Positions 1 through 62,873 of a stretch of DNA of 64,000 nucleotides are shown piece after piece. The stretch spans positions 71,858,001 to 71,922,000 of the forward strand of contig OX597815.1 in assembly GCA_951406725.2 (NCBI GenBank), written 5' to 3'. The DNA comes from Octopus vulgaris. Its lineage: Eukaryota. The notes beneath the pieces were generated by a model that worked only from the letters and a program-made list of their open reading frames with translations, was not told the DNA's origin and did no database searches. The position numbers and the translations under genes were made by a program. Position 1 is the first letter of the stretch, and every line of letters starts with the position of its first letter.

Positions 1-1278
1 CAGGAGAAAAGAATGGTATGACAAGAGGACCATTGTTTACAGGGTGTGCGCAAACGAAAGGAAGAGGGTAGAAGTTGTATCCATGGAATGGATAGAGGAA
101 GCCCTGCGAAGAACTGAGGAGGAAATAAATTTTCTGACTCGAGGATCCAAGTACGGGACCGTAGTTGTGCACTTTAAAAGTGAATCTGCAGCGAGGAAGA
201 TGGCAGCGAAGGCGGTGAAGTCGGAAAAGGTAACACTGTTACCTACGTATTTAAACAGGAGGATTACACGAATAAGGGTGGAGGGAGTGCCACCAAACGT
301 GGAGGCAGAATGGATTGTGGCGGCTGTGATCAGCGGCCACGAGGACGAAGTGGATATTCTCCATGCCTCGGTTAAGTCCGAGGGCTGGAGAGGCGTAACA
401 GTGGAGCTGAACGTACAGGCAGAGACCGAGGTACTGGTGGACCTGACGGAAAGCATCAGACTGGGAGAAGTGATCATGAGAGTGTGGGTGGAGGGCAGGG
501 CTCCACGTTGTTACAAGTGTGGCCTGAGGGGTCACATAAGAGCCTTCTGCCCTCCCCCAGGGAAAGAAATGGATCCCGAACCAGAGAGAGAGAAGCAGAA
601 ACCAGAGGAGAAGGAAACAGAGGAAGAGAATACACAGAAATGGAAGGAAGCTGGAAGTAAGAGGAAGAGAAGAATATGTGGAAAAAAAGAAAATAATATG
701 GAACTCCAATCTACCCCAAAACCTCCCACACCCTCTGAGTCCCACCCTATCCATGCAGACATTGAACCCACCCGCTCCCCCCAACAAGAAAACAAAAGAA
801 AAAAAGAATACACACACACAAGAGATTGAAATCGAACCCAGGCCGTACATTTGGACTATGACTGAACAGAGGGAAGTTAAAAGTCTAATGGAAGAGTATA
901 AACGGTATGATGTTGGAGAGACTAGGTATGCTGTGATTGAAAAAAAGAACATAGGTGAGTTTATGGGGAGGTGTGAAAGGGAGAATTGGGAGGTGAAAGA
1001 TATAAGAATGAGCGATGAATTCGTGGAAAGTATGAATGAGTGTTTCGGAGTAAGAGTGGATATGGAATTTATTCGTATTGGCAAAGAACATTCAAGTGAC
1101 TATGAAAAACAAAGGACAGGTAAGTGATGCTGACGGACGGGGCCGTTGGTATCGCTTTCATTTTATCATTTTTTCGTTTAACACTTCATGTTCATATAGT
1201 TTAATTATAATGTTCTATGTCCCCATGTTTTGTTATGTCCGCCATTCTTCGTAGCCCCTTAGTGGGTAATAAAGAAAT
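1..1278 (+). mobile_element. ORF1-only non-autonomous Tx1-related retroelement, copy 1 (5' end outside window)
   Basis: ORF1 homologue followed directly by a ~150-bp 3'UTR ending GCCCCTTAGTGGGTAATAAAGAAAT; no ORF2; colinear with copy 2. Confidence 0.8.
2..1127 (+). pseudogene. Tx1-type ORF1 (Gag-like zinc-knuckle protein), one frameshift near 749
   Basis: Frame open from base 2 (RRKEWYDKRTIVYRV...); knuckle CYKCGLRGHIRAFC; removing one A near 749 fuses ORF 44-829 to ORF 678-1127, matching copy 2. Confidence 0.8.
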
Positions 1279-2953
1279 ACGCGTTTTTTTGCGCTCAGTA
1301 AAATTCGGTTAAAAAAGAAAAAAGAACAAAAAGTGAATTGTGGTTGCGGAATTGGAACGTCGGTTGGTGCGGTTTCGCGTCGCACTGGTTCTGTGCGTCG
1401 CACGTTTTCTGTTCGGGAGGCCGTTTTTCGGTCTGAGGCGACTATGAGCCGCCTCTACCAAACGGATGAGATGGAAGGGAGAAATTTCTCTGAAAATTCG
1501 TCGACATCTGAGAAGGAGTTGGCGGTGAAAAAAATGGAAAGCACCTACGCAGGTATAACGAAGAAGTCAACAGAAAAAGAGATAGACCTGGCTAAGTTGA
1601 CGGACTTCCAGGAGTTCATGAAGGAGGAGGAGAACGGAGAGGTTGAGCTGTTGCCTCTAGCAGGGCGCGGAGACTGGTTCTATCGTAGAACCATTAAATA
1701 TAAAGTATTTATGAATGGAGGTAGAAAAATGGAAGTGATTAACATGGAAGCAATTGAAGAGGCTTTCAAACAGACAGGAGAAGAAATTGTGTACATGACA
1801 AAAGGATTAGAATATGGAACCATAACGGTACAATTTAAAAGGGAGAAAGCAGCCAGGAATATAGCAGCCAAGGTGGTGAGTACAGAAAAGTTTTACTTGT
1901 TCCCTTCGTATTTGAATAGAAGGACCACCAGAATTAGGGTGGAAGGAATACCTCCACACCTAGAGGGCGAATTAATAACGGCTGCGGTTATCAAAGGAAA
2001 TGAAGATAAAGTGGACATCCTCCACGCCATTATGAAATATGAAGGCGTGAGAGGTGCCACACTAGTAATGAACATACAGACGGAGGCGGAAGTTATAGAA
2101 AAGCTTACGGACAGTATAAAAACTGGAAATATTATTATGAGAGTGTGGGTGGAGGGTAGGGCGCCCAGGTGCTACAAGTGTGGCCTGAGGGGTCACATAA
2201 GAGCCTACTGCCCTCCCCCACCAAAGGAAAAAGAAAAGGAAATCGTCGCGGAAGCCCCAAAAGAGGAAGAAACCAAAGAGAATCAAAGGGAAAAAGAAAC
2301 GACAGAAGAAGAGGAGATGCAACAAGAGTGGGAAGAAGGAAGAAAAAAGAGAAAAAGAAAGAAAAAGAAAAACTGTGCGAAGCCCCAACCCACCCCAACA
2401 CCACCCGCACCCTCTGAATCCCACCCTTCCCCACAGACAGTGAACCCACCCGCTCCCCTCCAACAAGAAAACAAAAGAAAAATAATAATACAGACAGACA
2501 AGAGTTTGAAAACGAACCCAGGCCGAACATTTATATTGTGACTGAACAGAAAGAGGTTGAAAGGGTAATGGAGGAGTATGAATGGTATGAAATGGATGGG
2601 ACCAGATATGCAGTGCTGGAAAAGAAGAATATAGATGAGTTTGTGTTGAGGTGTGAAAGGGAGAATTGGGAGGTGAAAGATACAAGAATGAGCGATGAAT
2701 TCGTGGAATATATGGAGGACAGTTTCGGAGTAAGAATGGATATGGATGGTCTTCGTATTGGGAATGAACATTCAGGTGACAGTGAAAACAAAAGGACAGG
2801 TAAGTGATGCTGGCGGAGGGGGCCGTTAGCATCGCTTTCATATTATCATTTTTTCATTTTCATTTGCTCATGAATTTAATCATATTGTTCTATGTCCCCC
2901 ATGTTTTGTTATGTCCGCCATTCTTCGTAGCCCCTGGTGGGTAATAAAGAAAT
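1279..2953 (+). mobile_element. ORF1-only non-autonomous Tx1-related retroelement, copy 2 (apparently full length, ~1.67 kb)
   Basis: CpG-rich leader 1279-1443, ORF1, then 3'UTR ending GCCCCTGGTGGGTAATAAAGAAAT; no EN or RT. Confidence 0.8.
1444..2807 (+). CDS. Tx1-type ORF1 zinc-knuckle protein (1444-2541) plus ~100-aa C-terminal domain in the -1 frame (to 2807)
   Basis: First ATG 1444; STYAGI motif, RRTIKYK...GTITVQF...PSYLNRR...IPP region, CYKCGLRGHIRAYC knuckle; downstream domain conserved with copy 1. Confidence 0.8.
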
Positions 2954-3184
2954 AACATGGAGGAAATCAATTTATTGCGTTATTAGTAAGTTGATATATA
3001 TTTTTGCTCTCATACTACTTATCTCTGTTATTATATACTGTTGGTCTACCTTTTTTTGTCCATTGTTGTCTAACGGACGAAGTCAACCTTCGCGCGAAGA
3101 CTTCGCGTTGGTGTTCCCCCCTCAGTGGGGGAAAACTACAATCAATTTAGATTACCAAAGGCTTGTTAAAGCCATTTGTTCAAG

Positions 3185-4557
3185 ATGGAGTCCCCCATCA
3201 CTTATTCGCCCGTGACGAGCGAGGATGAATACCCGGCGTTGTCGCCAAGTAAAAAAGAGGCGTTGTCGCCAAGAAAAAAAGAGGCGCTGTCGCCGAAGAA
3301 AAAGAGGCGGCGTCGCCCAAGAAAATGGTAAAACCAGTACCAGCATCAACTCCAGCAAAAAAATTCGCTGAAGTGGCTGGGAAGAAAATTTAAAAAATTA
3401 ACGTGGACAACCTGGGAAAACATGCGGACTGTGTGTCAAAAGAGGGCACGGAAGTAACCGTGGCTTCAAACGCCAAAATACAGGAGGATATTTCGAATAG
3501 GAGAATAATCTATAAGACATTCAGTATAACAAACAGAGCAATCCAAAAAATAGAGGAGAAAAAGATTGAAAACTGCTTAAAGCCAATAATGGATAAAATT
3601 ACGTATATCAATCGAGGGAAGAAATACGGCACAGTGGAGGTGAGATTCACGTCAGAGGAGGTAGCGAAGAAGCTATCCATGGAACCCATAAAAGCGGAGG
3701 ATATTGTTCTCCTACCCCTGTATAAAGGCAAGAGAACTTCCAAGATCTCAATGAACAACATCCCGCCAGAAGCGGATGCCGAAGTCCTAGTGGCAGCAGT
3801 TATGGTAGGCCTGGAGGAAAAAATAAACATCCTCCAGGCCACCGTAGAAGAAGAAGAATTCTGGAAAGGGCAAAAGATAATAATAGCCATACAAGCAGAA
3901 GTACAAACCCTGGAAGAGATCCCAGAGACTCTAAGGATAAGCGAAGATGAAAGAGTCACAGTCTTCGTAGAGGGCAGAAAGCCGAGGTGCTTCGGCTGCG
4001 GTAAGAAGGGGCATGTAAGGGCGGAATGCCAGCCCCAACCCAAACCGCAGGAAGCACCTAAGCCAAAAGAAAAAGAAGACAATGTGTCACCAGAAGCAGC
4101 GTCAGACGGCCCAGAAGGGAAGACTGAAGGTGTGGAGGTGATGGTAACAGCAGAACTAGCGGCGGAGAAAAAAAAGAGCGAGGAAAAGATAAATGAGGAG
4201 GGGTGGGCAAAAATTATCGGAAAAAAAAAAAGAAAAACGGAAACCACCCCTCCCAGAGTAATTTTAAAAAAGAAAAAAGAGTCAATGAACTCATATATGG
4301 CCGTAAAAGCATCAAATAGCAGACTCGGAAACGTGTTGGCAGCCATGGCCAATGTGAAGAGAGTAGAGAAAAAAAATGACTTTGTAATTTACAAAATAGA
4401 CCGGAAGGATTACGGGCGGATAAAGTCAGATTTCTTCCATGACGTAGGCCCACTTAGGTTGGATGTAACATCTCCACATATATTCGAGGGCCTACGTCAG
4501 ACTCCCCACGAGGCCCAGAAAAAGAGAAGGAAGAAGAAGAAAAAACCGAACCACTGA
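3185..4557 (+). pseudogene. Tx1 ORF1p; likely start ATG 3185, frameshift ~3300, in-frame TAA at 3391
   Basis: MESPITYSP...(EALSPxKK)n...KKFAEVAGKK leading into ORF 3403-4557 with knuckle CFGCGKKGHVRAEC. Confidence 0.82.
3233..3326 (+). repeat. 24-bp tandem repeat x4 encoding EALSPxKK
   Basis: Units of GAGGCGTTGTCGCCAAGAAAAAAA. Confidence 0.85.
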
Positions 4558-4571
4558 TATAAAGGTAAGTA

Positions 4572-7500
4572 ATGGATTACATTTATGTTGGTTGTTTAAA
4601 TGTGCGCGGCCTGGGAGCAGGCTGGAAGCAAGGTCGCTTCCTGCATGATATCAGGTCGCGTAATTTAGATGTTATTGTTGCTACAGAAACCCGGCTAGAG
4701 GGGCCAAGAGGTCTACTCCCGCTGTTTGACGGCTACGAGAGTTTTTTCTCTCCTGGCAGTCCTACAGGCGGGAGTGGGGTGTTGGTCCTATTAAAAAGAA
4801 ACCGGGTTTCTGAGAAAAAGTTAATTTTTGCAGATCCAGAAGGTAGGCTGGTCGTCATGGATTTGACGTTCAGTAATGGTAAAGTTATCAGACTGGTTGC
4901 AATTTACGCACCCAACCATACAGGGCAAAGTGATTATTTTCGTGAACTAGAAAACTTTCTTGGTACTTCGCATTCATTAGTGGTGCTAGGAGACTTTAAC
5001 ACAATTTGCAAAGCGGATGTAGATTATGTTGGCTCGTGTCCAGATAGAAAAGGCAACAGTGGCTTCATGGAACTGCTAAGCCGCTTTGAGCTAGCAGATC
5101 CTTATAGGCTGGAATTTCCGAACGCTCCATTGTGGACATGGTCAAACAGCGACGGATCTTCCAGGTCGTATCTAGATAGAATACTAATTAGAAAAGTAGA
5201 CAGTAAAATAGCTAAGTGTCCACAGTTTTACCCGATCAGCTACAGTGATCATAAAATGGTCACTTGTAAGCTTGACATAGATAAGGTTAAAAATAGAGGA
5301 TCCGGTTACTGGAAACTTAATACGTCCCTTTTGGCGATTAAGGAGTACAAAGACCGGATTAGGAATATAATTCAGAGGGCACTATCTGGTACCATCATTA
5401 ATAACAAATGGTGGTACGCCCTCAAACGAGCCATCAAGTTTGAGTCTATTAGATATAGCATAGGAGTAGTGGCTAGAGAGGCTAGAAGGGAAACTACTCT
5501 AGTTAAGGAATTAGAGGAAGCCATGAAAACTGGCTCTGCGGCTCAGGTGGCGGCCAAGAGACTGGTGTTAAACCAGCACCTCGAGGCCAAACACATGGGC
5601 TGCATTGTCAGGGCTAGAATCCGTCATATGGGATGTGAAGGAATCAACGCCGTGAGATGGGCCCGAGTGGTGGAAGCTCAGCATGGTAACGATGCCACGA
5701 TTCGATCTTTGACGAACCAACAAGGTGAGTTGATAAACGAACCCGAGGAGATGTGTGAGGCCTTTCAGGAGCACTTCGCTCAGCTTTTCGGTGAGTGCGG
5801 CGGACTGGATAGGAGGAGGGCCTTTACGGACCTACTCGACGGTCTGCCGCGCTTATCGGGGCGAGATGCGGAGGGCTGTGAAGGGCCAATCACGCCTGAG
5901 GAGGTGGTTGAGGCAATGGCGGACTGCGGCGCGGGCAAGGCGCCGGGTTTGGATGGTCTACCCTATGAGTTATATAAGAGTATGCCAGACTTGTTCGGGC
6001 ACCTACTGGCGGAGGTCTACGCGAACTGGCAGCAGAACGGGCTTATACCCAGATCTGTGCGCCGGGGAGTAGTGACTCTCGTCAGAAAGGACCCGAGCAA
6101 GGGGGAGTGCATTGATAATTTCAGGCCCATCACTCTGCTAAACACAGAGTTGAAGATTTTGGCCAAAGTGTTATCGAAAAGATTGGCGCGTGTCGCGGAT
6201 GGTCTGATCGGAGGGGCACAGACATGTGCCGTTCCGGGCAGATCCATTCAGGATAATCTCCATCTAATGCGGTACACTATAGAGGGGTTTAATAGTGATT
6301 CTGGCAAGGGTGGGGCACTGGTCCATTTAGACCAATCTAAAGCTTTTGATAGGGTCGACCATCGTTACCTGGTATCTGCCCTGGCACAGTTCGGGCTGAG
6401 CCTTGGATTCCTCAGGTGGATTATCGAAATTTATGATAACATCGACTCGGTAGTTCGGGTGAACGGCTTCTTGTCGAAGCCGTTCAAAATCAAACGCTCG
6501 GTTCGTCAAGGGTGTCCGCTCTCCCCGCTTTTGTACGTGATGGCTCTTGAGCCATTACTGCGAAAACTGAGCGGCATCCCGAGACAGCCAGGTAATGGAA
6601 AATCAGTGTCAGCGTACGCGGATGACATCACCATCATCGTAACCGAAATGGACCACCTATGTAAAGTAGGCAAGGCCATAGAGGTGTACGAGACGGTGAC
6701 AGGAGCAAAAGTTAATCGCGAAAAGTCAGTCGGCTTGCAACTCGGCACCTGGAGAGGCAAGTCGATGCCGCCTGACAGCGTCGTGGGACGTTGGACGGAG
6801 GGTCCGATTAAACTGCTAGGGGTCTGGTTCGGTCCAGACCTCCAAATAGAGAAGAATTGGGGCGAGGTAACGAGCAAGGTGGCTGCAGTAGCCAAGACCT
6901 GGTCTTGGCGGTGGCTATCCCTGAAAGGGAGGGCGGAGGTGGCCAATGTGTTTATCGCATCGGTTATCACCTACCGCCTTTCCGTCGTTCCTTGCCCTGA
7001 TTCGTGGTTGATCAAGTTGGAAAGACAGCTCTTCTACTTCTTGTGGAAGGGCGGGAAACCACTTGTGAAACGCTCTACTTGCTGTCAACAACCGTTAAAG
7101 GGTGGGCTAGGGATGCCTTGGCTGATGATGCGCAGACATGCGCTGAGGTTAAGACATCTGTGGCTCTACCTGGATGGTGAACGGGTGTGGTCTTCGCTAG
7201 CAAAACTGATGTTTCCCAAGTTCACTAGTTTCGGTGGATGGGAAACCTGGCTGAATCGTAGATCGAAACTTGGTACTTGGTACACGGAGTGTCGCAAGGC
7301 TCTCCTGCTATTCCGTCGCTCGGGCAACGCCTGCGGTGGGGGTTCCACCACTTTCTTCTATAGAGGGTTGGTAGAGGCGGAATGTGAAGATACCTTGGGG
7401 AAACCCTAGGTCTCGACGATAACCAGCTGGCCAGTCTGTTCCGACGTACGTTCGAGCCAAGGACACTGGACAACTTCCAGAAGTCTCTGGCATGGCAATG

Positions 7501-7966
7501 CTACAGAGGAGCTCTACCTGTTCGGGATAAACTCGCAAGGCACGGTGGCCAAGACAGTCCGATATGTCCAAGATGCGGGCGGGATAGGGAAACTGTCCCG
7601 CACGCGATTGTTCATTGTCCGGACGTGTCTGAGGTGTGGGTTTATGCCGAACACCTGTTGTCAGGTACACGAAGAGTACAGCTGTCGACTGAGTCGATTA
7701 CAAAAATTGACCCACCGGATTTCCTCGTGAATGAAGGTAAGTTTCGTTTTCTCGTTGTAGTAGCAATCGCGAAAGAGGTGATATGGAAGACGAGAATGAA
7801 AGGTTTACAGTCAGGCAAGTTCATCTCCGGCCCTGGTTTGATGAATTATTTCATCTTTCACCTGAAAAGGAAGATAGGGCTGGAGAGAATATGCCTGACT
7901 AGGAGAGCGTATGAAGAACGATGGAAGGATGTAGCACGGAAGTTGCGAATGAAAGTTACAACATAA
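4572..7966 (+). CDS. Tx1 ORF2p: AP endonuclease, reverse transcriptase, C-terminal zinc finger; single frameshift at the G-run ~7397-7400
   Basis: LNVRGL, ATETR, IYAPN, GDFN, LDRIL, SDH; KAPGLDGL, FRPITLLN, DQSKAFDRV, RQGCPLSP, YADD; after the shift CPRCGRDRETVPHAIVHC runs in frame into ORF 7625-7966. Confidence 0.95.
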
Positions 7967-8211
7967 ATGTAATACCAAGTGCAACCAAAAGTATCAGTGG
8001 GGAGGCGGGGCTCGTGGGGTCCGAGCTAAACCCGCACCCACTCCACCCGTAATGTCTTCCGGTCTGTCCTATCACTCGATTTCTGTCCATTTATTGTTAT
8101 TCATGAAAATTTTTAAACCCGATTTATTGTAAAAACCCATTCGTTTGTCTGACCCCATCATCAGAATGTATTGTCCCATCTGTGTTCGCCCCTTGTGGGT
8201 AATAATAAAAC

Positions 8212-8520
8212 AACATGGAGGAAAGCACCTTCGAAAAGTGTCTTGGTGCAACTATGAAAGGTATCTAAACAGAGGCGGTAAATTCGCCACAATAGAAGCA
8301 AGGTTCGAGTCAACGGAGCGTGCAAGGGAGTACTCGACTCGAACTTGCAAAGTGGAAATATTTTATTTTTACCTTTATATCTGGGACGTAGGACGTCCCG
8401 TAAAAAAATTTAAAGCCCCCCCCCCCCCCCGAAGTAGAGGTAGGCTGGATTGTAGCCACACTTCTATACAAGAGGGAGGACAAGATACAATTGATCGAAA
8501 TTACAAAAGACAGGCTAACA
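8212..8520 (+). pseudogene. Degraded fragment of an older Tx1-family ORF1 (the insertion target)
   Basis: With frameshifts reads NMEESTFEKCL...YLNRGGKFATIEARF...LPLYLGRRTSR...PPEVEVGWIVATLL, aligning to YINRGKKYGTVEVRF...LPLYKGKRTSK...PPEADAEVLVAAV. Confidence 0.78.
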
Positions 8521-9445
8521 ATTCCTGTCTGTTATATATTTTGAGTATTGTTATCACTAACGATATCAAGATATAACTTTGTATTTTGTATTTTATGTGT
8601 AGATGTATATATATATATATAAATGTACATGTAATATGTACACATATATATACACATATATGCATGCACTAGCACTATGACCCAGCAACGACGGGTCTTT
8701 AATATCCAATAAAATAATATAAGCATTTAAAAAACCTATGAAAGACAATAAAATTATTTGAAAAAATATATCTAACTTACCTATTATTAGTCTGTGGGGA
8801 AAGAAGATACTTTTAATCAAGGCTACACGTGTTTCTGCGGTGGTGGGGTGTTTATCAAGGCTATACCTAATACATAAATCCACCAGTGCGTCCTCGAGCT
8901 TTTTATATTGACTTTATATTATTGTTTCTGACTAAAAACGGGGTTTAAAATGTATATAAGATACGATAGATGGCAGCTAGTAAAATGTTAAATAAGAATA
9001 TTGTTTTTTTTTATATATTACCCCTTATATGGTATTTTAAGATGTGCATATGCATACTTTTTTTTACCAGTAAATAAGGGAGAATCAAGGGCAATGTTTA
9101 CTTAGTTATACAGGGTGGGAGTGATGAGTATCTAATCATACGAACGAAAGGAACTGAATACTAACAAAGTTACGCTTGTAAGCTTCAGTTCTGAATTTGA
9201 ATTGACGAATGAAGGAATAAAATATAAATTAGTTAGAAAACGAAATTAATAGAAAATGATCACAAAGAAAAAACTAAAGGTACTAATTTTAGATACTTAT
9301 TATTCACTGATGATCTCCAAATGACATAATATAATAATGTGTATTACTTTTGTGGAAATACCTATTCTTCAATTGTATACCCGAAATATGGTCTTTTGCG
9401 ACAGAAAAAGCTGTCTGGTTAAATTAAATAACTAATCCATATTAG

Positions 9446-9890
9446 TGTAGCGTGGCAGTTTCAGCCATTTTGAAATATGACTATAGCGATTTCTAATATC
9501 TTCACTATTTGAAAGGCAAGGCAGAAATGATCTCGTTTGAGGTTACAGCCATCTTTGGCCAACTTGTTCCTGTTGTAAACACTAACCTGATTGGTTGACA
9601 CGTGACGCGATTTGTCTCCACTTATTTTCGCGCCACTGTCCCGAAACAACCAATCACGACCTTTGGTTAAGATTCCATTTCTGAGGCCCGTTTGAGCCAC
9701 CCAACCGGTATATAAAGGAGTATTTTCAGACACTTTTTGTCTTTGGTTCCAGTTCTTCTAAGAACTAAGTTTAGACCACAGCGCTACTCAACCAAACGAT
9801 ATACGATTGTTTCTGTTACCACTAGCTACGACGCTAATGTACAGTCACCACAGAAAGCCTTCTATCTCCGCCGCCGTCGTCACCATCATT
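9446..9890 (+). repeat. 5' LTR (first ~445 bp only)
   Basis: Direct repeat of 12765-13210; TATA-like TATATAAA at 9709. Confidence 0.93.
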
Positions 9891-10629
9891 GTACCAACAT
9901 ATGGCGTTTCTTTTCAAACTAGGGCTCCTCGACCTCCAGCGCCATCTTGAATTTTTTTGTTGATCGGAGCGACTGTTTCTCTCAAGTTGCAAACTCTCTA
10001 TTTTCTTCGTTAATACGTCGAATTGTTTTTCGTAACATTTTTTTAACTCTTGTGTTTCACTCGAAATAGATGGAATCGCACTAATAGTTTCTTTGGACGA
10101 TAACTCCAAAATACCGTCTGCTAAATCTGCCAACTGTTGAATTGAATTCTGTTTTTTTACGGCCGAGAGCAAAGTTTGGGTTTTATACGGCAGCTTATTG
10201 AAAAATACCTCTTTGAGGTACGATTCCTCTATTTGCTGGTTCCCCAGAAGTTCGTTCATCCTTCGTAGAAGTTGTGTGGGTTTTTTACTACCCAGTTCTT
10301 CGTTGTTAAATAATTTTGCGAATTCTTTTTGCTTAGAACTTGACGTACGCTTCAATATTTCTTCTTTAATAGATGAATACGAAACTGGTTCCATAGGGTT
10401 CAGCATTAAATCCCTGACTTCATTGCTTAGAGGTGGAGGCAAATTACTAAGCATGATGTTGTACTTCTGTTCTTCATTTGTTATTCTGTTAGCTTTAAAG
10501 CTTGCCTCTAGTTGTGCCAACCAAATTACGGTGTCTCCAGTCCACGGAGGACAATTCAATACATTGACAGAAGCTTGTGTGTAACTTCTGTCGATGTATG
10601 ATGCCTCGAATTCTGTTTTTCTGCTCCAT
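9890..10629 (-). pseudogene. gag: Gypsy gag, inverted relative to the LTRs
   Basis: CPPWTGDTVIWLAQLEASF...ELGSKKPTQLLRRM...ICWY; ATG 10629 with an early frameshift. Confidence 0.85.
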
Positions 10630-10827: not shown

Positions 10828-11418
10828 ACGATGTGATGTTCTACCGAATGCGCACACGTAATATTTAGAGCTAACTGTTTTGTGATTTTTGGATAATTTT
10901 TCAAAATCTTGTGGTATCTATTTCCTGAAGACGCTATGAAATATAGTGGACTAATTGTTGCCTTTCTGCATCTCATTCCCTGAATTTTTAATGACGTTTG
11001 TGTGTCTATTAATTTTTGTTTGTTAACATCTACCATTAAATGATAGTGCGCCAAAAAATCCGCTCCTAATATTGGATATGGCAAATCCGCTACTATGAAG
11101 ATCCATTTGTAGTCTCTTCGTAAATTTATATTGAGCGTTAAGCTAATCTCTCCAAATGTTTGGATTTCAGACTATTCACTGCTTGAAGAGTCATATACAC
11201 AGGTTTGGTTTTTTGTTTTAAAAGCCTTACAGGCCATATTGAACACGCTGTTCCTGTATCCACGAGAAATCTTTCTTTCGAGTTTAAGTCATAGACGAAA
11301 AACACGCGACTTTTTATAATATTATCCACAGATTTCGTCGCATCCAATCTATGGTTTAGAAGTTTTCCGAATTTCCCTTTTTTCTTAGCTAGGAAATCAA
11401 ACGCACAGGGTTTAATGC
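10828..11418 (-). pseudogene. gag C-terminus, aspartic protease and pre-RT linker, inverted
   Basis: CIKPCAF...GNSENF*, FLVDTGTACS, PILGADFL, VEHHIVT. Confidence 0.87.
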
Positions 11419-11419
11419 G

Positions 11420-12508
11420 AATAAGGATATTCGTTCATGGGTAAAGTCATGTATGCAATGTCAGAAATCCAAAGTACAACGTCATATCAAAGAACCATTA
11501 GGTACATTTGCAAATCCGGATGCGAGATTCCAACATATCCACATCGATATAGTGGGACCCTTATCTCCATGCGAGGATAATATGTATTTGTTGACGTGTG
11601 TCGATTGTTTTTCGAGATGGCCCGAGGCTTATCCGATAAAAGATGTATCTGTAGTAACTATAGCAAAAACCTTGTTTACCAATTGGATGTCTAGATTTGG
11701 CATCCCAAATGCAGTGACAACAGATCGTGGTAGACAATTTGAGTCTAGCTTGTTCGCAGAATTCAATAAATTGTTGGGGATTAATAGAATTCGTACAACT
11801 TCATATCACCCACAATCTAACGGAATGGTAGAAAGATTCCATAGACAGTTGAAAGCTTCATTAAGAACTTATTCTTATTCTAACGATTGGCTGCAGGCTT
11901 TGCCAGTGGTATTGTTGGGAATTAGAAGTGCGGTTAAGGAAACTATACAGTATTCTCCGGCTGAACTATTGTACGGAACAACATTAACTCTACCTGCTCA
12001 AATGTTCGAGGAAACTAATATTTTCAATGGAGATGTTAATGATTATGTAACTCGTCTAAAAAGATTTCTTACGGATATTCCTTCTTGTACAAGAAAATTG
12101 CAAAATGTTACAAGCTTTCTTCCTTCGGATATAAAATCTTGGACACATGTGTATGTCCGTAACGATGCAGCTCATAATTCACTGAGATATAAATACACCG
12201 GACCTTTTAAAGTCTTATCAGTTACAGACAAAACTATGACTTTGGAAATGAATGGAAAGAAAGAAAATGTCAGTGTCGACAGAGTAAAAAAAGCTTATTT
12301 CGACCAATATCCATGTCATGAAAACGGTGATATGAGCAACACACATCAACATAACGTGAAAACAAGTGACAGTCAAGGAAACAAATCCGATGTTGATGGA
12401 AAAACAAAATCAATTCTAAAGTTACCTACAAATAAAAAAAAACTAGAAGTGGTAGAACTGTCCATTTCCCAAGAAAACTTTCTCAGTTTGTTTGAGAATT
12501 TTATATAA
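11420..12508 (+). CDS. Gypsy integrase (N-terminally truncated)
   Basis: CMQCQ, HIDIVGPL, TDRGRQF, SNGMVERFH, YTGPFKV. Confidence 0.92.
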   Translation, partial: NKDIRSWVKSCMQCQKSKVQRHIKEPLGTFANPDARFQHIHIDIVGPLSPCEDNMYLLTCVDCFSRWPEAYPIKDVSVVTIAKTLFTNWMSRFGIPNAVTTDRGRQFESSLFAEFNKLLGINRIRTTSYHPQSNGMVERFHRQLKASLRTYSYSNDWLQALPVVLLGIRSAVKETIQYSPAELLYGTTLTLPAQMFEETNIFNGDVNDYVTRLKRFLTDIPSCTRKLQNVTSFLPSDIKSWTHVYVRNDAAHNSLRYKYTGPFKVLSVTDKTMTLEMNGKKENVSVDRVKKAYFDQYPCHENGDMSNTHQHNVKTSDSQGNKSDVDGKTKSILKLPTNKKKLEVVELSISQENFLSLFENFI

Positions 12509-30745: not shown

Positions 30746-31148
30746 AAGGCGGCGAGTTGGCAGAAACGTTAGCACGCCGGGCGAAATGCTTAGAGGTAGC
30801 AGTATTACGTCTGCCGTTACGTTCTGAGTTCAAATTCCGCCGTGGTCGACTTTGCCTTTCATCCTTTCGGGGTCGATAAATTAAGTACCAGTTACGCACT
30901 GGGGGTCGATGTAATGGGTTTAATCCGTTTGTCTGTCCTTGTTTGTCCCCTCTGTGTTTAGCCCCTTGTGGGTAGTAAAGAAATAGGTATTTCGTCTGTC
31001 TGCACGTTCTGAGTTCAAATTCCGCCGACTTTGCCTTTCATCCTTTCGGGGTTGATAAATAAAGTACCAGTTCTGTACTGGAGTCAATTTAATCGACTGG
31101 CCCCCTCCCCTAAAATTTCGAACCTTGTCTCTAGAGTAGAAAAAATAT
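30746..31148 (+). mobile_element. Dimeric SINE family B (head-core-Tx1-like tail, then partial head-core-tail A); also 58412-58998(-), 61576-61977(-), 35882-36290(-); monomers/fragments ~29465-29680, 31515-31650, 40185-40557, 42435-42580, 51410-51770, 55410-55535, 56260-56445
   Basis: B-box GAGTTCAAATTCC, core GTCGACTTTGCCTTTCATCCTTTCGGGGTCGATAAA; TSD AATATAGTGAATTA at 30731-30744 and 31144-31157. Confidence 0.88.
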
Positions 31149-35871: not shown

Positions 35872-36459
35872 CTAGCGATCTTATTTCTTTATTGCCCACA
35901 CGGGACTAAACATAGAGGGGACAAACAAAGACAGACAAAGGTATTAAGTCGATTACATCGACCTCAGTGCTTAACTGGTACTTACTTTATCGACTGAGAA
36001 AGGATGAGAGACAAAGTCGATTCGGCGGAATTTGAACTCAGAACGTAACCGTAGACGAAATACCTATTTCTTTACTGCCCACAAGGGGCTAAACACAGAG
36101 GGGGCAAACAAGGACAGACATACGGATTAAGTCGATTACATCGACCCCAGTGCGTAACTGGTACTTAATTTATCGACCCCGAAAGGATGGAAGGCTAAGT
36201 CGACCTCGGCGGAATTTGAACTCAGAACGTAACGGCAGACGAAATACTGCTACCGCTAAGCATTTCGCCCGGCGTGCTAACGTTTCTGCCAATCGAAAGC
36301 CACCATTATGTATATGACGGTAAATCTTACATTGGTGTGCATTTCCATAGTAACAAACAGCGCCGTAGTCTGACACTTTCACCTCTCTCATTCACTACCA
36401 CAAATGTTGGCGAGCAAAATCATTTTGTGTTCGTGTTATTTCTGCCTAGCGATCTTATT
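35872..36459 (-). mobile_element. SINE B dimer ending in the Tx1-like tail, with a ~155-bp captured 5' segment and 14-bp TSD
   Basis: TSD CTAGCGATCTTATT at 35872-35885 and 36446-36459; 36287-36444 is the reverse complement of 36819-36975. Confidence 0.85.
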
Positions 36460-46329: not shown

Positions 46330-48900
46330 TATTCATGTTTCTTCTATATCTTTGCCCTTTGGAATCTGATTCTGAAGGAATGTTTTTGTGAGCTAGCATA
46401 TGTCTTTTAAGTCCATATATTATCTTACAGGTTTTATGACATATGACACAAGCCGTAAGAGGTAGTTGATGTCCAAGATTATTTATTACCTGTCTGGGCA
46501 TTTCGATTTTCATGTGACTTCATATGATTCAGGTATCCTGCTTTTGACAACAGAACACGATCACATGTAATATCCAATATTCACTATTGATTACAGTTCC
46601 AATTGTTCCTTTGCCATAGGTCCTTATAAGCTCAGATTACGGAATCATATTTTCCTCCCAGGCATTGCAACTAGTCCTAACTGCACCTCTCCACTTGTTC
46701 CGATCGAGAATATCATTTTCCCAGTCACTTTTTGTTCATATCTAGTTTCTTCAGTTTTTCCTTCACCACAAGTCTTTATACCTTTTCCCGGCTTACAGTG
46801 TGGTCGCTTACCAGAGTTGAACTCACCATAAAAAAAGACGTTTTGGAAATCGCTCGTCTTTCATTCTAATAAAATGTCCAGTCCATCTCATTTGAGCCAA
46901 GATCACATGCTGTTCAATTGAGCTACAACATGCCATGCACAAAACTTCTGTATCTAGTATGAATCATTCCCACTTGACTCCTAAGATACGTCTGAGGCCC
47001 TTTTGATAAAATCTCTCCAGCATTTTTATATGACGCTTGTAAGTGGTCCGCGTCTCACCTGAATAGAAAAGTGCAGTCAATACTCACGCTTTATAGACAC
47101 TGATTTTGTCTGCAGGGAAATACCTCTATCAACCCATACTCGCTTTTCGAGCTTTCCAAATGCAACACTTGCCTTCCCTATTCGATAGTATATCTCTGCA
47201 TCAAAACTACCATCTCTTGACAGTGTGTTTCCTAGGTAAACAAAGGTGTCAACGACTCCTAACCTTGTTCCATTCACAAAAATGTTTGGTTCAGAATATG
47301 CTTGTTCTGTTACGGGAGTAAACATTACTTTGATTTTCCCCAGACTAATTGTGAGCCCTAAATGTACACATTCAGTGGAAAATCTTTTGCATAACCCCCT
47401 CTGAGTGTGCTAACAATTCAGCATCATCAGCATAAAATAATTCTCTAACAAGTATTTTGAAAGTCTTTGCATTGCAGTTAAACTGGATCAAATTAAAAAT
47501 ATGACCAGATGTCTGAAATCTGATTCCAGTTTCTCTGTAGCAATCCTTGAAAGTATACCAAAGCAATGCAGCAAAATAAATAGAGAAAAGTGTAGGGGTA
47601 GGAATATCTCCCTGTTTAACACCATTGTCCACCAAAAATTCATGAGATAGTTCACCATTAAAGACTACCTGAGCTTTCATGTTTCTGTGTAATTCCTTAA
47701 AGATGCTCACAAAATGTGTTGAGCAACCAAGTTTATGCAAAACAATCCACAATGCCTCCCTGTTTACCGTGTCAAATGCCTTAATTAAATCTATGAAGAC
47801 CTGGTATAGTGGCATTTGTTTCTCTAAGCATTTCTCCTGAACCTGCCTCACAGAAAATATCATGATCATTGTTCCTCGCTCAGGTCTGAAACCACACCGT
47901 TCTTCAGGAATCATATGCGGGCACACATTCTCAACGAGACGATCTAACATGGTCTTTGAAAGTATCTTCCCGGTATATGCAACGAGAGTTATCCCGTTAG
48001 AATTACCATACACTGCTTTTAGGCCCTTACCCTTGTATACAGAGATTAGAATGCCATTTATCCATTCCTGTGGCACAGAAGATTCATTCCAAACTCGAGT
48101 TATAAGGCTATGAATTTCAGATGAAATATGATCTCCACCTGCTTTCAGAATTTCAACTGGAATACGATCCAATCCAAGAGCTTTATCTGATCTCAGTTTA
48201 CATAATGCCGGATTTATTTCTTCAATGGAAAGGGTATCGTTCACGTGTTGCACTATCTCTCTTTGCAAGATGTTGTTTATGATATCCATGTCCACAACAG
48301 ACGGATTGTGGAAAAGTTCTGCAAAGTGTTCTCTCCATCTATTCATTATTCCAGGAGGCTCGTTAATAACTTCATTTCCATCTTTTGACTTCAAGGGAAC
48401 ATATGATGAAGATTGCCGTCCAAAAGCTTGCCACAATAAACTATAAAAACTTTTAGTGTCTTTCCTGTCATAAACTGCCTGTACTTCCTCAGACAAATTC
48501 CTCCACCAAGTGTCTTTAAGCCTCCTGAGTTCTTTTTACAAGTTTGCTTTCTGAGACGTGTACAACTTTTCTAGTTGCACTTTGTTCTTTACGTTTGGGT
48601 CAAGAATTTTTTTTAGTAGTGGCCCTCTTTGTTGCTAAAAGTCCATTTATCACTGTATCATTGGAATCAAACCAGTCTCAGTGCTATCTCCTCTTAAAAC
48701 CTAACATTTTTAGTGCACCTTTTCTAGCACCTTCCCAGTATATCCAGGTGAGCAGCGTTCTCCTTTAAAGGCTGCTCAGACACAAGATTCTCAACCGAAA
48801 ACAGTTCCTGTCCATAAAAACATGTTAGCGATGTTAAGATAAGAACCCTGTCGCCTTGCAGATTTGTAACTGAATGCGTCCAATCGGTCAAAGCTGCATA
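46330..48900 (-). mobile_element. RTE-clade LINE, 5'-truncated and degraded
   Basis: ORF 47372-48496: FIDLIKAFDTVNRE, GVKQG, LFYADDAEL; downstream YLGNTL...YRIGKASVAFGKL; terminal CVICHK...GLKRHMLAH. Confidence 0.9.
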
Positions 48901-56300: not shown

Positions 56301-59300
56301 CTTTACGTTCTGAGTTCAAATGCCATCGAAGTCGACTTTGCTTTTCATCCTTTCAGGGTCGATAAAATAAGTACCAGTTGAGCCCTGGAGTCGATGTAGA
56401 CTTACCCGCTTTCCCGAAATTACTGACCTTGTACCAAAATCTCAAACCATTTTTAATTGCTTTATCTACCGTTAAAGAGTAAATAAATAAAATGCCTATG
56501 CTCATCATATGTCACAACAGCGCCCCTACAATTCCATTAATTAGTTAATTTTTGGCTCAAAACGCAAAAGGACCCAGAAGTAGGCAAAGCAAGGCCACTC
56601 CATATTAAATCGTTTCACTTTCCCTTTTTCCTTTTTATACTCACTTGATTTTAGATTGATCCCGCAGACTAGGGGTCTGCAACGATAGCACTGAAAAAAA
56701 AAGGCAAGAAAATACCTCTTTTTTTTATTATTCACACTATTTTCAATCAAAATTTTTGACAGACATTTCAAGACTTAAGTTGATTTATTGTTGTTTTGTT
56801 GACCTTACAAAGAATTATCGGTCAGTTCAGTTTAAGTAGAATCTGCGGTGCTGGAACAGTCGATCAAAGACTCAATTGAATGAACGTTCAAACCGTGACT
56901 GTTCTCTCTTTGTTGCTCTTCCAAGATTTATGATTGTAAAACATGTGGTTGCCATTTTAAAAGATGGCGGACACTTAGATGAGAATACTTGGTTATGCTG
57001 CTATTGAGCAGCTCTAGTGACTATAGAGAAGTCTTTGTGGTGGTTAAAAATATAAATTAAGTTTGGCAGGGGACTAATACCAGTAATTATTGCATTTGGG
57101 GTCAAGTGTGGAACCTTAGAACCTTCTAGGCGGGAAATTTTCTCAGTTCATTGCATCCAAATAACTACAGCTGAAGAAAAATAGTTCGTGTTATCCATTT
57201 ATCAGAACCGTGTGTGTGTGTGTGTGTGTGTGTGTTCATACTGAAATTTCATACAGAACTTTTTAGTGAAATAATCACATTTTCTAAAAGGCTCTTTCAC
57301 CTTCATTCAATCCTCTCTCTGACTTCCTCTTTCTTTTTCTCTCCCAGCCTCTCTCTCCCCTTCTCTCTCCCTTCATCTCCCCCTCTCTCTCTTCATCTCC
57401 CCCTCTCTCTCTCTGTATCCTTTCAAACGTTACTACTTTGTACTCCAATCGCAATGACAAGAAGAGAAATATCTTTTATTCTGAAATTAAGATGGCGATG
57501 ACGGTACAGTTGCTATGCTGGATTCACAATGTTTTAAAACATTTTTTCTCAATATTCCGGACTCCCTCCCCCACCTTCCTGCTCCTCCTTTCCTCCTCTT
57601 CCTCCTCTTCCTCCTCTACCTCCTCCTCCTCCTCTTCCTCCTCCTCCTGCATCTCCTCCTCCTCACCTCCTCATTCTCTTCTTTCTTCATGAAGGAGCTG
57701 AAGAATGAAAGAGACAGAAGAAAAAAAAGAAAAGAAAGAAACAAAGATAGAAAGCAAGAATTCCGAACTGATGTAGTGAAAAACAAAAACAAAGAAATAA
57801 AAACAAATAGAAGACATTTGCGTTGTATGTTTGTCAAAACTAAGAGTGGAATGAAAACCTCTAACTTTATAACGTTCGTGTTTGGTAGACAAAAGGACAT
57901 TTTATGAGTTTCATTTTATTTTTCTCTCCCTTGATTTTCTCTTTCTTCCCTCTTCCCGTGATTCTATCACGCAAACCAACAAAAATTAACAAAAGACTAC
58001 AATAGAAATATTACTTGAACAGTTACGAAGCCATTAGACTCATAACAGAAATCATTGACACTCGTCTTCCTAAATAAATCGTTTGTTATCATCACCAACC
58101 GATCATATATTTATTATTGCCATTATTGAGACAGTGCTAGGTTAGAACCATAGACTGACTAAATCACAGCAGGAAGGAATGATTGGACAAATAGACTTGC
58201 GTGTTTATCTTTCATCTTTTATCTTTCATTTGTTGCAGTCAGTGGACTGTGGCCATATTGGGGCACCGATCTGATGGCTGCAGTCCAGTGCTTCTCAACA
58301 TTTTTAAACTATGGGCCCCTTTGGTTCCAATTTTAGTCCACAGGACCCCCACCCAACCCAGCAGCCATTCGTTGTTTAAAAAATTCCTATTATATTTTTA
58401 TAATTAAATATTCTTTTCTACTCGAGGCACAAGGCCCGAAATTTTGAGGGAGGGGCCGGTTGATTAGATCTACCCCAGTACGCAACTGGTATTTAATTTA
58501 TCGACCCCGAAACGATGAAAGACAAAGTCGACTTCGGCGGAATTTGAACTCAGAACGTAGCGGCAGACGAAATACATATTTCTTTACTACCCACAAGGGA
58601 CTAAACACAGAGAGGACAAACAAGGACAGACAAACGGATTAAGTCGATTATATCGACCCCAGTGAGTAAGGATGAAAGGCAAATTCGACCTCGGCGGAAT
58701 TTGAACTCAGAACGTAGGATACCGGACGAAATAACGCGAATCATTTCGCTCGGCGTGCTAACGTTTCTTATTTCTTTATTGTCCACAAGGGACTAAACAT
58801 AGAGGGGACAAACAAGGAGAGACAAAGGGATTAAGTCGATTACATTGATTCTAGTGAGTAACTGGTACTTATTTAATCGACCCCGAAAGAATGAAAGGCT
58901 AAGTAGACCTCGGCGGAATTTGAACTCAGAACGTAGCGGCAGACGAAATACCTCTAAGCATTTCGCTCGACGTGCTAACGTTTCTGCCAGCTCGCCGCTT
59001 TTATGATTAAATATTATTAGGAATTGCATTAAAAAACTAAAATATTTTGTGTTGTACAAGTATAACCAATTTAATGCAGATAAGTTTTAGCAACAAAATT
59101 TTACATGGACCTACAGGGGCCATGTGGACCCCGGTTGAGAATCACTGATGTAATCGAACAAATCGACCCCGGAACTTATCTCTTTCTTTTTTTTTAAGTT
59201 CGGTACTTACTCTCTTTCTCTTTTTCTCTCTTTTACTTGTTTCAGTCATTTGACTGCGGCCATGCTGGAGCACCGCCTTTAATCGAGCAACTCGACCCCG

Positions 59301-61145: not shown

Positions 61146-62873
61146 GAAAACGGTGGTTTACAAGGGATTTTCTCTAATTCGTAGCCTGTACATAGTTTTT
61201 TTGTATGTAGGGTCTTCCATACTTTTTTAATCTATATGGTCGTACATTGGCTTTAGAGAATACGTTTTAGTGATTTTCACATTTTTTAAATTTATTATTT
61301 ATTCATATGTTGTAATTGTGTATTATTTCTTGGTTAGAGAATATTATAAAAGTGAAAGTATTTTGTCTGTTTATTTCGACTGTCCACCTGTTATTATTTA
61401 TTTATATGTTGTAACTGTATATTATCACTTGGTTAGAGAATATTCTTTTCTACTCTAGGCACAATGCCCGAAATTTTGGGGGAGGGGGTCAGTCGATTAG
61501 ATCGACTCCAGTACGCAACAGGTGATTATTTATTTATATGTTGTAACTGTAAATTTTTACTTGGTTGGAGAATATTCTTTTCTACTCTAGGCACAAGGCC
61601 CGAAATTTCGGGGGAGGGGCCACTCGATTAGATAGACCCCAGTACGCAACTGGTACTTAATTGATCGACCCCGAAAGGATGAAAGGCAAAGTCGACCTCG
61701 GCGGGATTTTGACTCAGTAAATACAGACGAAATACCGCTAAGCATTTCGCCTGGTGTGCTAACGTTTCTTATTTCTTTATTGCCCACAAGGGGCTAAACC
61801 TAGAGGGGACAAACAAGGACAGAGACCCCAGTGCGTAACTGGTACTTAATTTATCGACCCCGAAATGATGAAGGGCAAAGTCGACCTTGGCGGAATTTGA
61901 ACTCAGAACGTAACGGCAGACGAAATACCGCTAAGCATTTCACCCGGTGTGCTAACGTTTCTGCCAACTCGCCGCCTTTGGTTAGAGAATATTATAAAAG
62001 TGAAAGGATTTTGTCTATTTATTTATTTCTACTGTTCACCTGCGACGATTATTAAATTGACTAGGAATACTGTACACGATGAATATCCAATGCCAAACAA
62101 TCTTAATCTCCTTATTTAAACTGCATTAAACTTTGGCAAGCTTACCTTTACTTATTCTGAGTTACTTGAAACGTGATGTTCCCCCCTATCTTCTATTTGT
62201 TGATACCTTTGTTTATCTACCAATACGTTGTTCCACTTTAAGGATGCTTATTTACCTATCCATTATGATATTTAGAACGCGATATCTTTTCTCTGCGAAC
62301 TACTAAAGATTCAACGCAGTATTCATAAAATGAAGTCAAACTCTTCATGTCTTCATTTTACGTTACCTGAAGTCAATATCAGAGTGGTCATACACTGTAA
62401 GCAAGTAGAAAATATATTCCTTTAACTTTATATAATACCTACGAGTAGGTATTATATTGCTATTTTTTAACGTACCAATCATACTTCTCTCTGAAAAAAT
62501 AGTTCCCTTTGCTATTGAATAAACTAAACTTGCAGCGGGGAAGTTTCTACGCTTTCCTTCAATTGCCTTACACCATTTATGAGGCTGTTTCTGACAAGAA
62601 ATTTTGCTTTCATTTTGTAGTCATTATCCATAAAATACTCCCAAAACACTTCAGTAGTTCTACTTTGCTTTGCTTGCAAACTTATATGTTCTATGATCAT
62701 TAAAGTGCAACGACCTCCACAATAACCAGCCATCAATTTGGTTTTCTGTTCCTAGGTTAATCTGAAACGTAGATTGCCGTACTACCCATAAACCTTCTCG
62801 GTAGTCCAATTATTTGGTGAAAAAAAATACCACCAAAGCAACTTAAACCGTCCAAAGAACGGATGCGTTTGCT

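Follow-up and report, generated by a model that had tools for sequence, protein, structure and literature searches.

A candidate ORF1-only retroelement family in Octopus that shares its 3' tail with a Tx1-like LINE and a SINE

A retroelement cluster and its junctions

The 64-kb stretch of the Octopus vulgaris genome analysed here (the window; assembly GCA_951406725.2, contig OX597815.1, positions 71,858,001 to 71,922,000 of the forward strand) is microsatellite-rich eukaryotic DNA. At positions 1-8570 it carries a plus-strand cluster consisting of two head-to-tail copies of an element with only the first open reading frame (ORF1), which we call the half-element, a full-length long interspersed nuclear element (LINE) with endonuclease (EN) as well as reverse transcriptase (RT), and an ORF1 remnant (Table 1). 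We read the half-element, with a probability of about 0.68, as a dispersed, non-autonomous, ORF1-only retroelement family of Octopus that a Tx1-like partner mobilises by way of the tail and target they have in common. A first-pass annotation had described two diverged copies made of ORF1 and a 3' untranslated region (UTR) of about 150 bp with no trace of ORF2. This layout was recovered: the copies are 76% identical across 1142 aligned nt (167-1279 of copy 1 against 1828-2954 of copy 2), and their 3'UTRs, 152 and 146 nt long past the stops at 1125-1127 and 2805-2807, agree at 133 of 146 positions (91%). The ORF2 of the neighbouring LINE found no match in 1-2953 by tblastn, and the UTR bodies of the half-elements resembled neither the start of that ORF2 (380/500 and 135/500 shuffles score as high) nor the LINE's UTR body better than shuffles did.

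One part of the description that may not hold is the missing trace of ORF2, since its ATG is possibly left at the ORF1 stop. In both copies ORF1 ends GGT AAG TGA TG, with the stop overlapping an ATG, whereas the LINE has GGT AAG TAA TG in its ORF1 frame, and there the ATG starts ORF2. The simplest reading is that ORF2 was lost right behind its start codon. Small ORFs that open at the overlapping ATG (25 and 45 codons) were rejected as a coding candidate, being unlike the start of ORF2 and not conserved in frame. The ORF1 end of all three elements (1116-1129, 2796-2809 and 4561-4574) is what we take to be a consensus splice donor, AG/GTAAGT; both copies still contain this donor, which led us to reject an origin from a spliced mRNA that used it. 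U1 binding or reinitiation may be what preserves GTAAGT at these ends.

At their 3' ends the half-elements carry about 30 nt that are shared with the tail of the LINE and with the tails of six copies of a short interspersed nuclear element (SINE), while the UTR body is not shared. When the last 35 nt of each copy were compared with the LINE 3'UTR, none of 500 shuffles scored as high, and a fuzzy motif search of the window returned nine tails, belonging to the two half-elements, the LINE and the six SINE copies. The tail has a stem of 4 bp that pairs in 36/36 cells and shows a single two-sided change; slid controls pair in 28-50%. The sharing of a tail between SINE and LINE is an accepted sign of stringent recognition by the RT of the partner, according to the relevant passages of PMC3747384 and PMC4824008.

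The 13-bp direct repeat AACATGGAGGAAA abuts the 3' end of copy 2 and recurs directly 3' of the LINE. These are its only two exact matches in the 64 kb, among five sites with at most two mismatches, and the repeat has no extension on either side. It is the LINE's target-site duplication (TSD), and copy 2 ends at the same bond, whichever of the two inserted first. The proposal that the half-element borrows RT is thus supported both by the tail in common with the neighbouring LINE and by the same integration bond. The right-hand repeat lies at the edge of a degraded ORF1 of another Tx1-like element, and in copy 2's own ORF1 the position homologous to this target, at 1741, matches 11 of its 13 bases. 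The putative target preference consists of two insertions at one bond of one locus. Rfam (at gathering thresholds) and ARAGORN gave no match over the window, which excludes a recognisable RNA gene as the target.

Table 1. Features of the cluster and SINE tails in the window (RRM, RNA recognition motif; zf, zinc finger)
Feature	Position	Strand	Remark
Half-element copy 1	1..1279	+	5' end outside window (<1)
Half-element copy 2, 1674 bp	1280..2953	+	5' boundary inferred from end of copy 1 tail
Copy 1 ORF1 core: two RRM-like domains, CCHC knuckle (476-559 block), acidic/basic linker	2..748	+	RRM fold from copy 2 model
Copy 1 C-terminal coding block	834..1127	+	Ends RTGK-stop
Copy 1 3'UTR with terminal stem-loop tail (~1252-1279)	1128..1279	+	Copy 2 follows directly
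Copy 2 ORF1, ATG to 1-nt gap: N-terminal region, tandem RRM, CCHC knuckle, linker	1444..2427	+	
Copy 2 ORF1 continuation in shifted frame	2418..2807	+	Includes C-terminal block (2514-2807)
Copy 2 3'UTR and tail	2808..2953	+	Tail ~2928-2953
GGTAAGTGATG, ORF1 stop overlapping ATG, copy 1	1119..1129	+	
GGTAAGTGATG, ORF1 stop overlapping ATG, copy 2	2799..2809	+	
GGTAAGTAATG, LINE ORF1 stop / ORF2 start overlap	4564..4574	+	
AACATGGAGGAAA, 13-bp direct repeat, left	2954..2966	+	Abuts copy 2 3' end
AACATGGAGGAAA, 13-bp direct repeat, right (TSD)	8212..8224	+	Directly 3' of LINE
Full-length L1-superfamily, Tx1-like LINE	2967..8211	+	ORF1 ~3186-4572 (broken); 3'UTR with shared tail
LINE ORF2, EN-RT-zf	4572..7966	+	One frameshift near 7395
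Degraded ORF1 of another Tx1-like element, insertion target	8212..8570	+	tblastn E=1e-7 with neighbour's ORF1
Example SINE copy with same 3' tail	30749..30985	+	
Five further SINE tails	35883-35907, 36066-36091, 58578-58603, 58770-58794, 61771-61797	-	

The ORF1 protein, its lineage and its dispersal

A profile search of ORF1 detected nucleocapsid-type zinc knuckles, and Pfam gave only a weak zf-CCHC match. The AlphaFold model of the copy 2 core, built on 46 rows (three window sequences and 43 of the 150 matches listed, of 895 at E<=0.001), had a predicted local distance difference test (pLDDT) score of 93.8. Foldseek placed tandem-RRM proteins best among its matches (IMP3 RRM12 at E=1.3e-5, Sxl and HuD; 58 matches at E<=0.001), and the predicted protein (ORF1p) fits type I, with two RRMs and a CCHC knuckle. 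This type is typical of non-mammalian Tx1-like elements, while mammalian L1 ORF1p is type II (PMC5203782, in the sections on ORF1p types). The core is 35-38% identical to the ORF1 of the neighbouring LINE, and its closest sequence is the Octopus sinensis protein LOC118767527, with 58% identity over the core. A tree was built for the part preceding the knuckle, from the 41 of 46 rows with at least 80 residues; in it copies 1 and 2 are joined by the O. sinensis protein (98/95), and the neighbouring LINE by two further proteins (100/97). A grouping of the two copies, the neighbour and the neighbour's near-twin into one clade was rejected (p-AU 3.3e-5) in an approximately unbiased (AU) test for which the 19 rows were chosen, and the tested group named, after the first tree had been seen. 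These results support a half-element ORF1 lineage separate from that of the neighbouring LINE, and two suggestions of the first-pass annotation, that the copies are only distantly similar to the neighbouring ORF1 and that they belong to an independent lineage, stand. A recent deletion from the neighbouring LINE is ruled out by the tree and the AU test, and the UTR bodies and 5'UTRs were no better matched than shuffles.

The neighbouring LINE is a candidate for the partner of the half-element, or for a close relative of that partner. Its ORF2 matches human L1 ORF2p at E=5e-65 and contains zf-RVT by Pfam, and the placement of the partner in Tx1 would follow from the type of its ORF1 and from an L1-superfamily ORF2, not from an RT tree. 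The core of its ORF1 is 98.7% identical to a database protein, and despite this identity ORF1 has a frameshift near 3300 and stops at ~3391 and 4555-4557.

Searched with the C-terminal block, 130 candidates yielded 19 clusters, every cluster being from O. vulgaris, comprising 61 member sequences on 14 contigs (told apart by length), which refutes the possibility that copies exist only at this locus. The clusters hold 31 units. Twenty-nine near-full units are 81-97% identical to the block of copy 1 (in one unit, 96/100 amino acids), one partial unit is nearer copy 2 (30/35), and 10 of the 19 clusters have two or three tandem units, some of them identical. In the gene models the block is joined to unrelated sequences (CFAP65-like, HAUS1, helix-turn-helix) and, in one model, to another family's ORF1 core (E=2e-29). 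The models begin at MTEQ or MSDEF and mostly break at KQRT, the breaks probably reflecting the use of the element's GTAAGT donor by gene prediction. The practical consequence concerns annotation: at least 61 O. vulgaris protein sequences, of which one is named as a TP53RK isoform, contain the block and are probably spurious gene models. The Pfam labels 'Ephrin' and 'LYR' on tandem models were discarded, since they arise from weak matches that recur along the model, no single stretch being significant. The neighbour's ORF2 was matched by none of the 19 models (E<0.01), and this gene-model evidence speaks against relatives that carry ORF2 between ORF1 and the 3'UTR.

Mosaic divergence and coding state

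The mismatch between the two copies drops from 39% to 16% at position 476 of copy 1 (2137 in copy 2), a fall reached in 0/300 permutations. Synonymous differences were found in 48 of 85 same-residue codons before this changepoint, compared with 5/25 in the knuckle block and 8/60 in the C-terminal block (Fisher tests against the pre-changepoint codons, p=0.001 and 1e-7, respectively). Since synonymous sites are near saturation in the RRM part and divergence of the 3' part is much lower, the changepoint, just upstream of the knuckle, is likely a recombination junction at which the RRM module was exchanged. The 3'UTRs have diverged by 9%, less than the synonymous sites of the C-terminal block (19%). 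The 3' similarity is unlikely to be due to local gene conversion, because units resembling copy 1, units resembling copy 2 and intermediates are present on other contigs.

Across the 185-codon core, the two copies have proportions of synonymous and nonsynonymous differences (pS and pN) of 0.69 and 0.24 and a ratio of nonsynonymous to synonymous rates (dN/dS) of 0.15, with dS near saturation; this strong signal is located in the 5' RRM part. The 28-codon zinc-knuckle block, which was picked post hoc, is also constrained (pS 0.24, pN 0.03, one-sided p=0.0096). The near-identical zinc-knuckle motif that had been noticed earlier, RVWVEGRAPRCYKCGLRGHIRA(F/Y)C, is present in copy 1 and copy 2, but it sits just past the divergence changepoint, so that its near-identity would reflect recent shared ancestry as well as constraint. 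After the shared loss of ORF2, constraint appears to be visible only in the zinc knuckle.

With regard to the reading frames, the stop-free core extends over 249 codons in copy 1 and 327 codons in copy 2. Gaps of 1 nt, near 780 and 803 in copy 1 and near 2427 in copy 2, all in or beside C/A runs, shift the 97-codon C-terminal block, in each copy, into a frame other than that of the core. An assembly error or recent slippage is plausible, given the position of the gaps beside homopolymers, the similar breaks in the young neighbouring LINE, and the O. sinensis protein, which reads through the break region, matching the frame of copy 1 first and the shifted frame of copy 2 next.

These data bear on an alternative that we consider unlikely, in which the half-element is a SINE-like passenger that spread through its tail only, with ORF1 as decaying cargo, most copies short or 5'-truncated, and a coding look that comes from autonomous donors. 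A number of observations count against the reading that we prefer, and several of them favour such a passenger. Both ORF1s are frameshifted as assembled, and the C-terminal block has a dN/dS of 0.86 (0.4-2.0; constraint test p=0.48) and would be stop-free by chance with p=0.14. Its 97-residue model has a pLDDT of 59 with no match in PDB at E<=0.001, a structure Atlas search for a homologue gave no usable match, and against a hidden Markov model of relatives' C-terminal domains, built from six hand-picked domains, the blocks scored 4.7 and 0.1 bits where shuffles reach 6.0 (hhalign probability 1.5%). The low dN/dS of the RRM part may stem from autonomous donors and so predate the loss of ORF2, since this part was exchanged, and the contrast in synonymous differences on the two sides of the changepoint points the same way. 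Searches with the core (4078 and 4234 candidates, 102-639 aa) returned only the O. sinensis protein, at 49-58%. The half-element core lies upstream of the C-terminal block in 0/19 O. vulgaris models, so many genomic copies may be short or broken. The absence of ORF2 beyond the window rests on gene models, not genomic DNA, and one model (P0164) ends in a stretch that looks endonuclease-like by eye, although it matched neither the neighbour's ORF2 nor Pfam. The covariation of the tail stem was equalled by column shuffles in 175/500 runs and is not significant alone. Finally, copies 1 and 2 are joined without the 13-bp repeat and the left flank is outside the window, so that, although the 3' end of copy 2 abuts the repeat, no TSD pair is established for either copy; the join itself could result from template jumping or from insertion into a 5'UTR.

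What speaks against a mere passenger is the constraint on the knuckle (p=0.01), which falls in the recently shared part, together with the long stop-free cores, the position of the gaps at homopolymers with similar breaks in the young neighbour, as assembly error would give, and the read-through in the O. sinensis relative. The claim that the copies keep coding capacity is therefore supported in part: the core of each is stop-free, and both ORF1s carry 1-nt frameshifts in the assembled sequence. Similarly, the proposal of selection to make an RNA chaperone of its own draws on the dN/dS of the core and on the knuckle, and is weakened by the mosaic RRM part, the lack of a constraint signal in the C-terminal block, the frameshifts and the lack of any O. 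vulgaris model with the core; selection on the half-element for a chaperone made in cis is possible.

Mode of spread and related systems

A further alternative, that the copies are dead-on-arrival internal deletions of an extant autonomous Tx1 family (the LOC118767527 lineage), made repeatedly and not self-propagating, would account for the survival of the ORF2 ATG at the junction, and octopus has about 80 L1-Tx1 families (PMC13282606). We regard it as improbable, because the same junction and UTR are found in two subfamilies that are 17% apart in the C-terminal block, and because many near-identical units lie on 14 contigs in models without a match to the neighbour's ORF2. Spread as a composite array (half-element, half-element and LINE), or by tandem or segmental duplication at the DNA level, would fit the missing duplication between copies 1 and 2 and the tandem, partly identical units in 10/19 models, but is very improbable given the 13-bp repeat between copy 2 and the LINE, which is what sequential insertion gives (as for SINEU-3 in the part of PMC4494074 on tandem insertions), and the many unrelated sequences to which the block is joined in models.

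Under the retroelement reading, the ancestor of the family would be a bicistronic Tx1-like LINE that is not the neighbour, and a deletion of ORF2 right behind its start codon would have left 5'UTR, ORF1, stop/ATG overlap, short 3'UTR and tail. The 3' stem-loop tail of its ~1.7-kb RNA would be recognised in trans by a Tx1-like ORF2p, as this protein would do for its own RNA and for the SINE. The ORF2p would then nick its preferred target, here inside ORF1 of Tx1-like elements, and reverse-transcribe the RNA there, and head-to-tail arrays could be built by repeated use of the same bond or by template jumping. Between lineages, the 5' part of ORF1 has probably been swapped at a point just upstream of the knuckle. 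The least supported step, to which we would give slightly less than even odds, is that ORF1p, with its tandem RRM and CCHC knuckle, is made in cis from master copies and packages the RNA. We hypothesise, as a speculation that we hold to be rather doubtful, an active octopus retro-community of three members sharing one RNA tail, namely a Tx1-like LINE that is autonomous, a dependant that codes for ORF1 protein only, and a SINE, in which the LINE endonuclease targets the ORF1 of relatives while the half-element borrows the enzyme, disrupts competing LINEs and renews its RRM module by recombination.

HeT-A also forms head-to-tail arrays with its autonomous partners. HeT-A (Jockey) and Ag-Sponge (CR1) are bipartite non-autonomous LINEs that encode ORF1p only, which is proposed to multimerise with partner proteins (PMC5786205); the half-element differs in belonging to another clade, in not being telomeric and in having its array inside the ORF1 of another element. 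HAL1, likewise an ORF1-only derivative of an L1-superfamily LINE, has several origins in mammals and a long retention of ORF1 coding capacity in guinea pig (PMC5753468 and PMC3627910, both citing Bao and Jurka 2010). In contrast to HAL1, whose ORF1 is of mammalian type II (Transposase_22; PMC5203782), the half-element has a type I ORF1, its 3' end is a sequence-specific tail common to LINE and SINE instead of a poly(A) with relaxed recognition (PMC3747384), its insertion appears target-directed and its host is a cephalopod. The half-element would thus work like HAL1 or HeT-A without being HAL1, and would come from a Tx1-like branch. Tx1 families often prefer other transposons as targets, and in crocodilians and Xenopus SINEU shares its target preference with Tx1-Mar, with tandem SINEU-3 insertions sandwiching the TSD (PMC4494074). 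Unlike SINEU, which encodes no protein, the half-element carries ORF1, and the targets given in the available text of that paper are DNA transposons, LTR (long terminal repeat) elements, microsatellites and RNA genes, the ORF1 of related LINEs not being named there.

The available text of the PMC5786205 review names no Tx1-derived case among ORF1-only LINEs. A study of O. vulgaris repeats counts 13 recently active L1-Tx1 families, 80 in all, and does not mention non-autonomous forms in its available sections (PMC13282606), and the portions of PMC9115989, PMC8967140 and PMC11203168 at hand contain nothing on ORF1-only elements of such kind. No Tx1-derived or cephalopod ORF1-only LINE was found in the accessible parts of the literature, a search that lay outside Repbase/Dfam and Bao and Jurka 2010, which may already hold such a family. 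The closest sequences, O. sinensis LOC118767527 and the O. vulgaris hypothetical proteins, carry annotations as uncharacterised proteins of the host. Three clades, Jockey, L1 and CR1, have reported ORF1-only LINEs, and descent from a Tx1-like parent, with a tail and a target that are specific, would be a fourth origin. The locus also points to LINE-into-LINE targeting, and it offers a system for asking why some LINE parasites keep ORF1 while SINEs with the same tail do without, one in which LINE, half-element and SINE could be compared in a single trans-complementation assay.

Elsewhere in the window, the abundant SINE with the shared tail occupies regions at 30749-30985 (+), 35880-36292 (-), 58460-58998 (-) and 61627-61975 (-). 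The head of this SINE is presumably tRNA-derived and its body Meta-domain-like, and several copies directly abut a piece of another copy, which suggests SINE-into-SINE insertion. The two LTRs of an element at 9446-~13150 start at 9446 and 12765 and show no differences along 350 nt; the element contains a gag-like DUF7041 ORF at 9834-10628 (-) and an integrase ORF at 11393-12508 (+). No YxDD motif was found between its LTRs, and it is best described as a young, RT-less LTR element with opposed gag and integrase. The RT fragment of another non-LTR element is present at 47372-48535 (-) (RVT_1, E=1e-14), with 27% identity to the RT of the neighbouring LINE.

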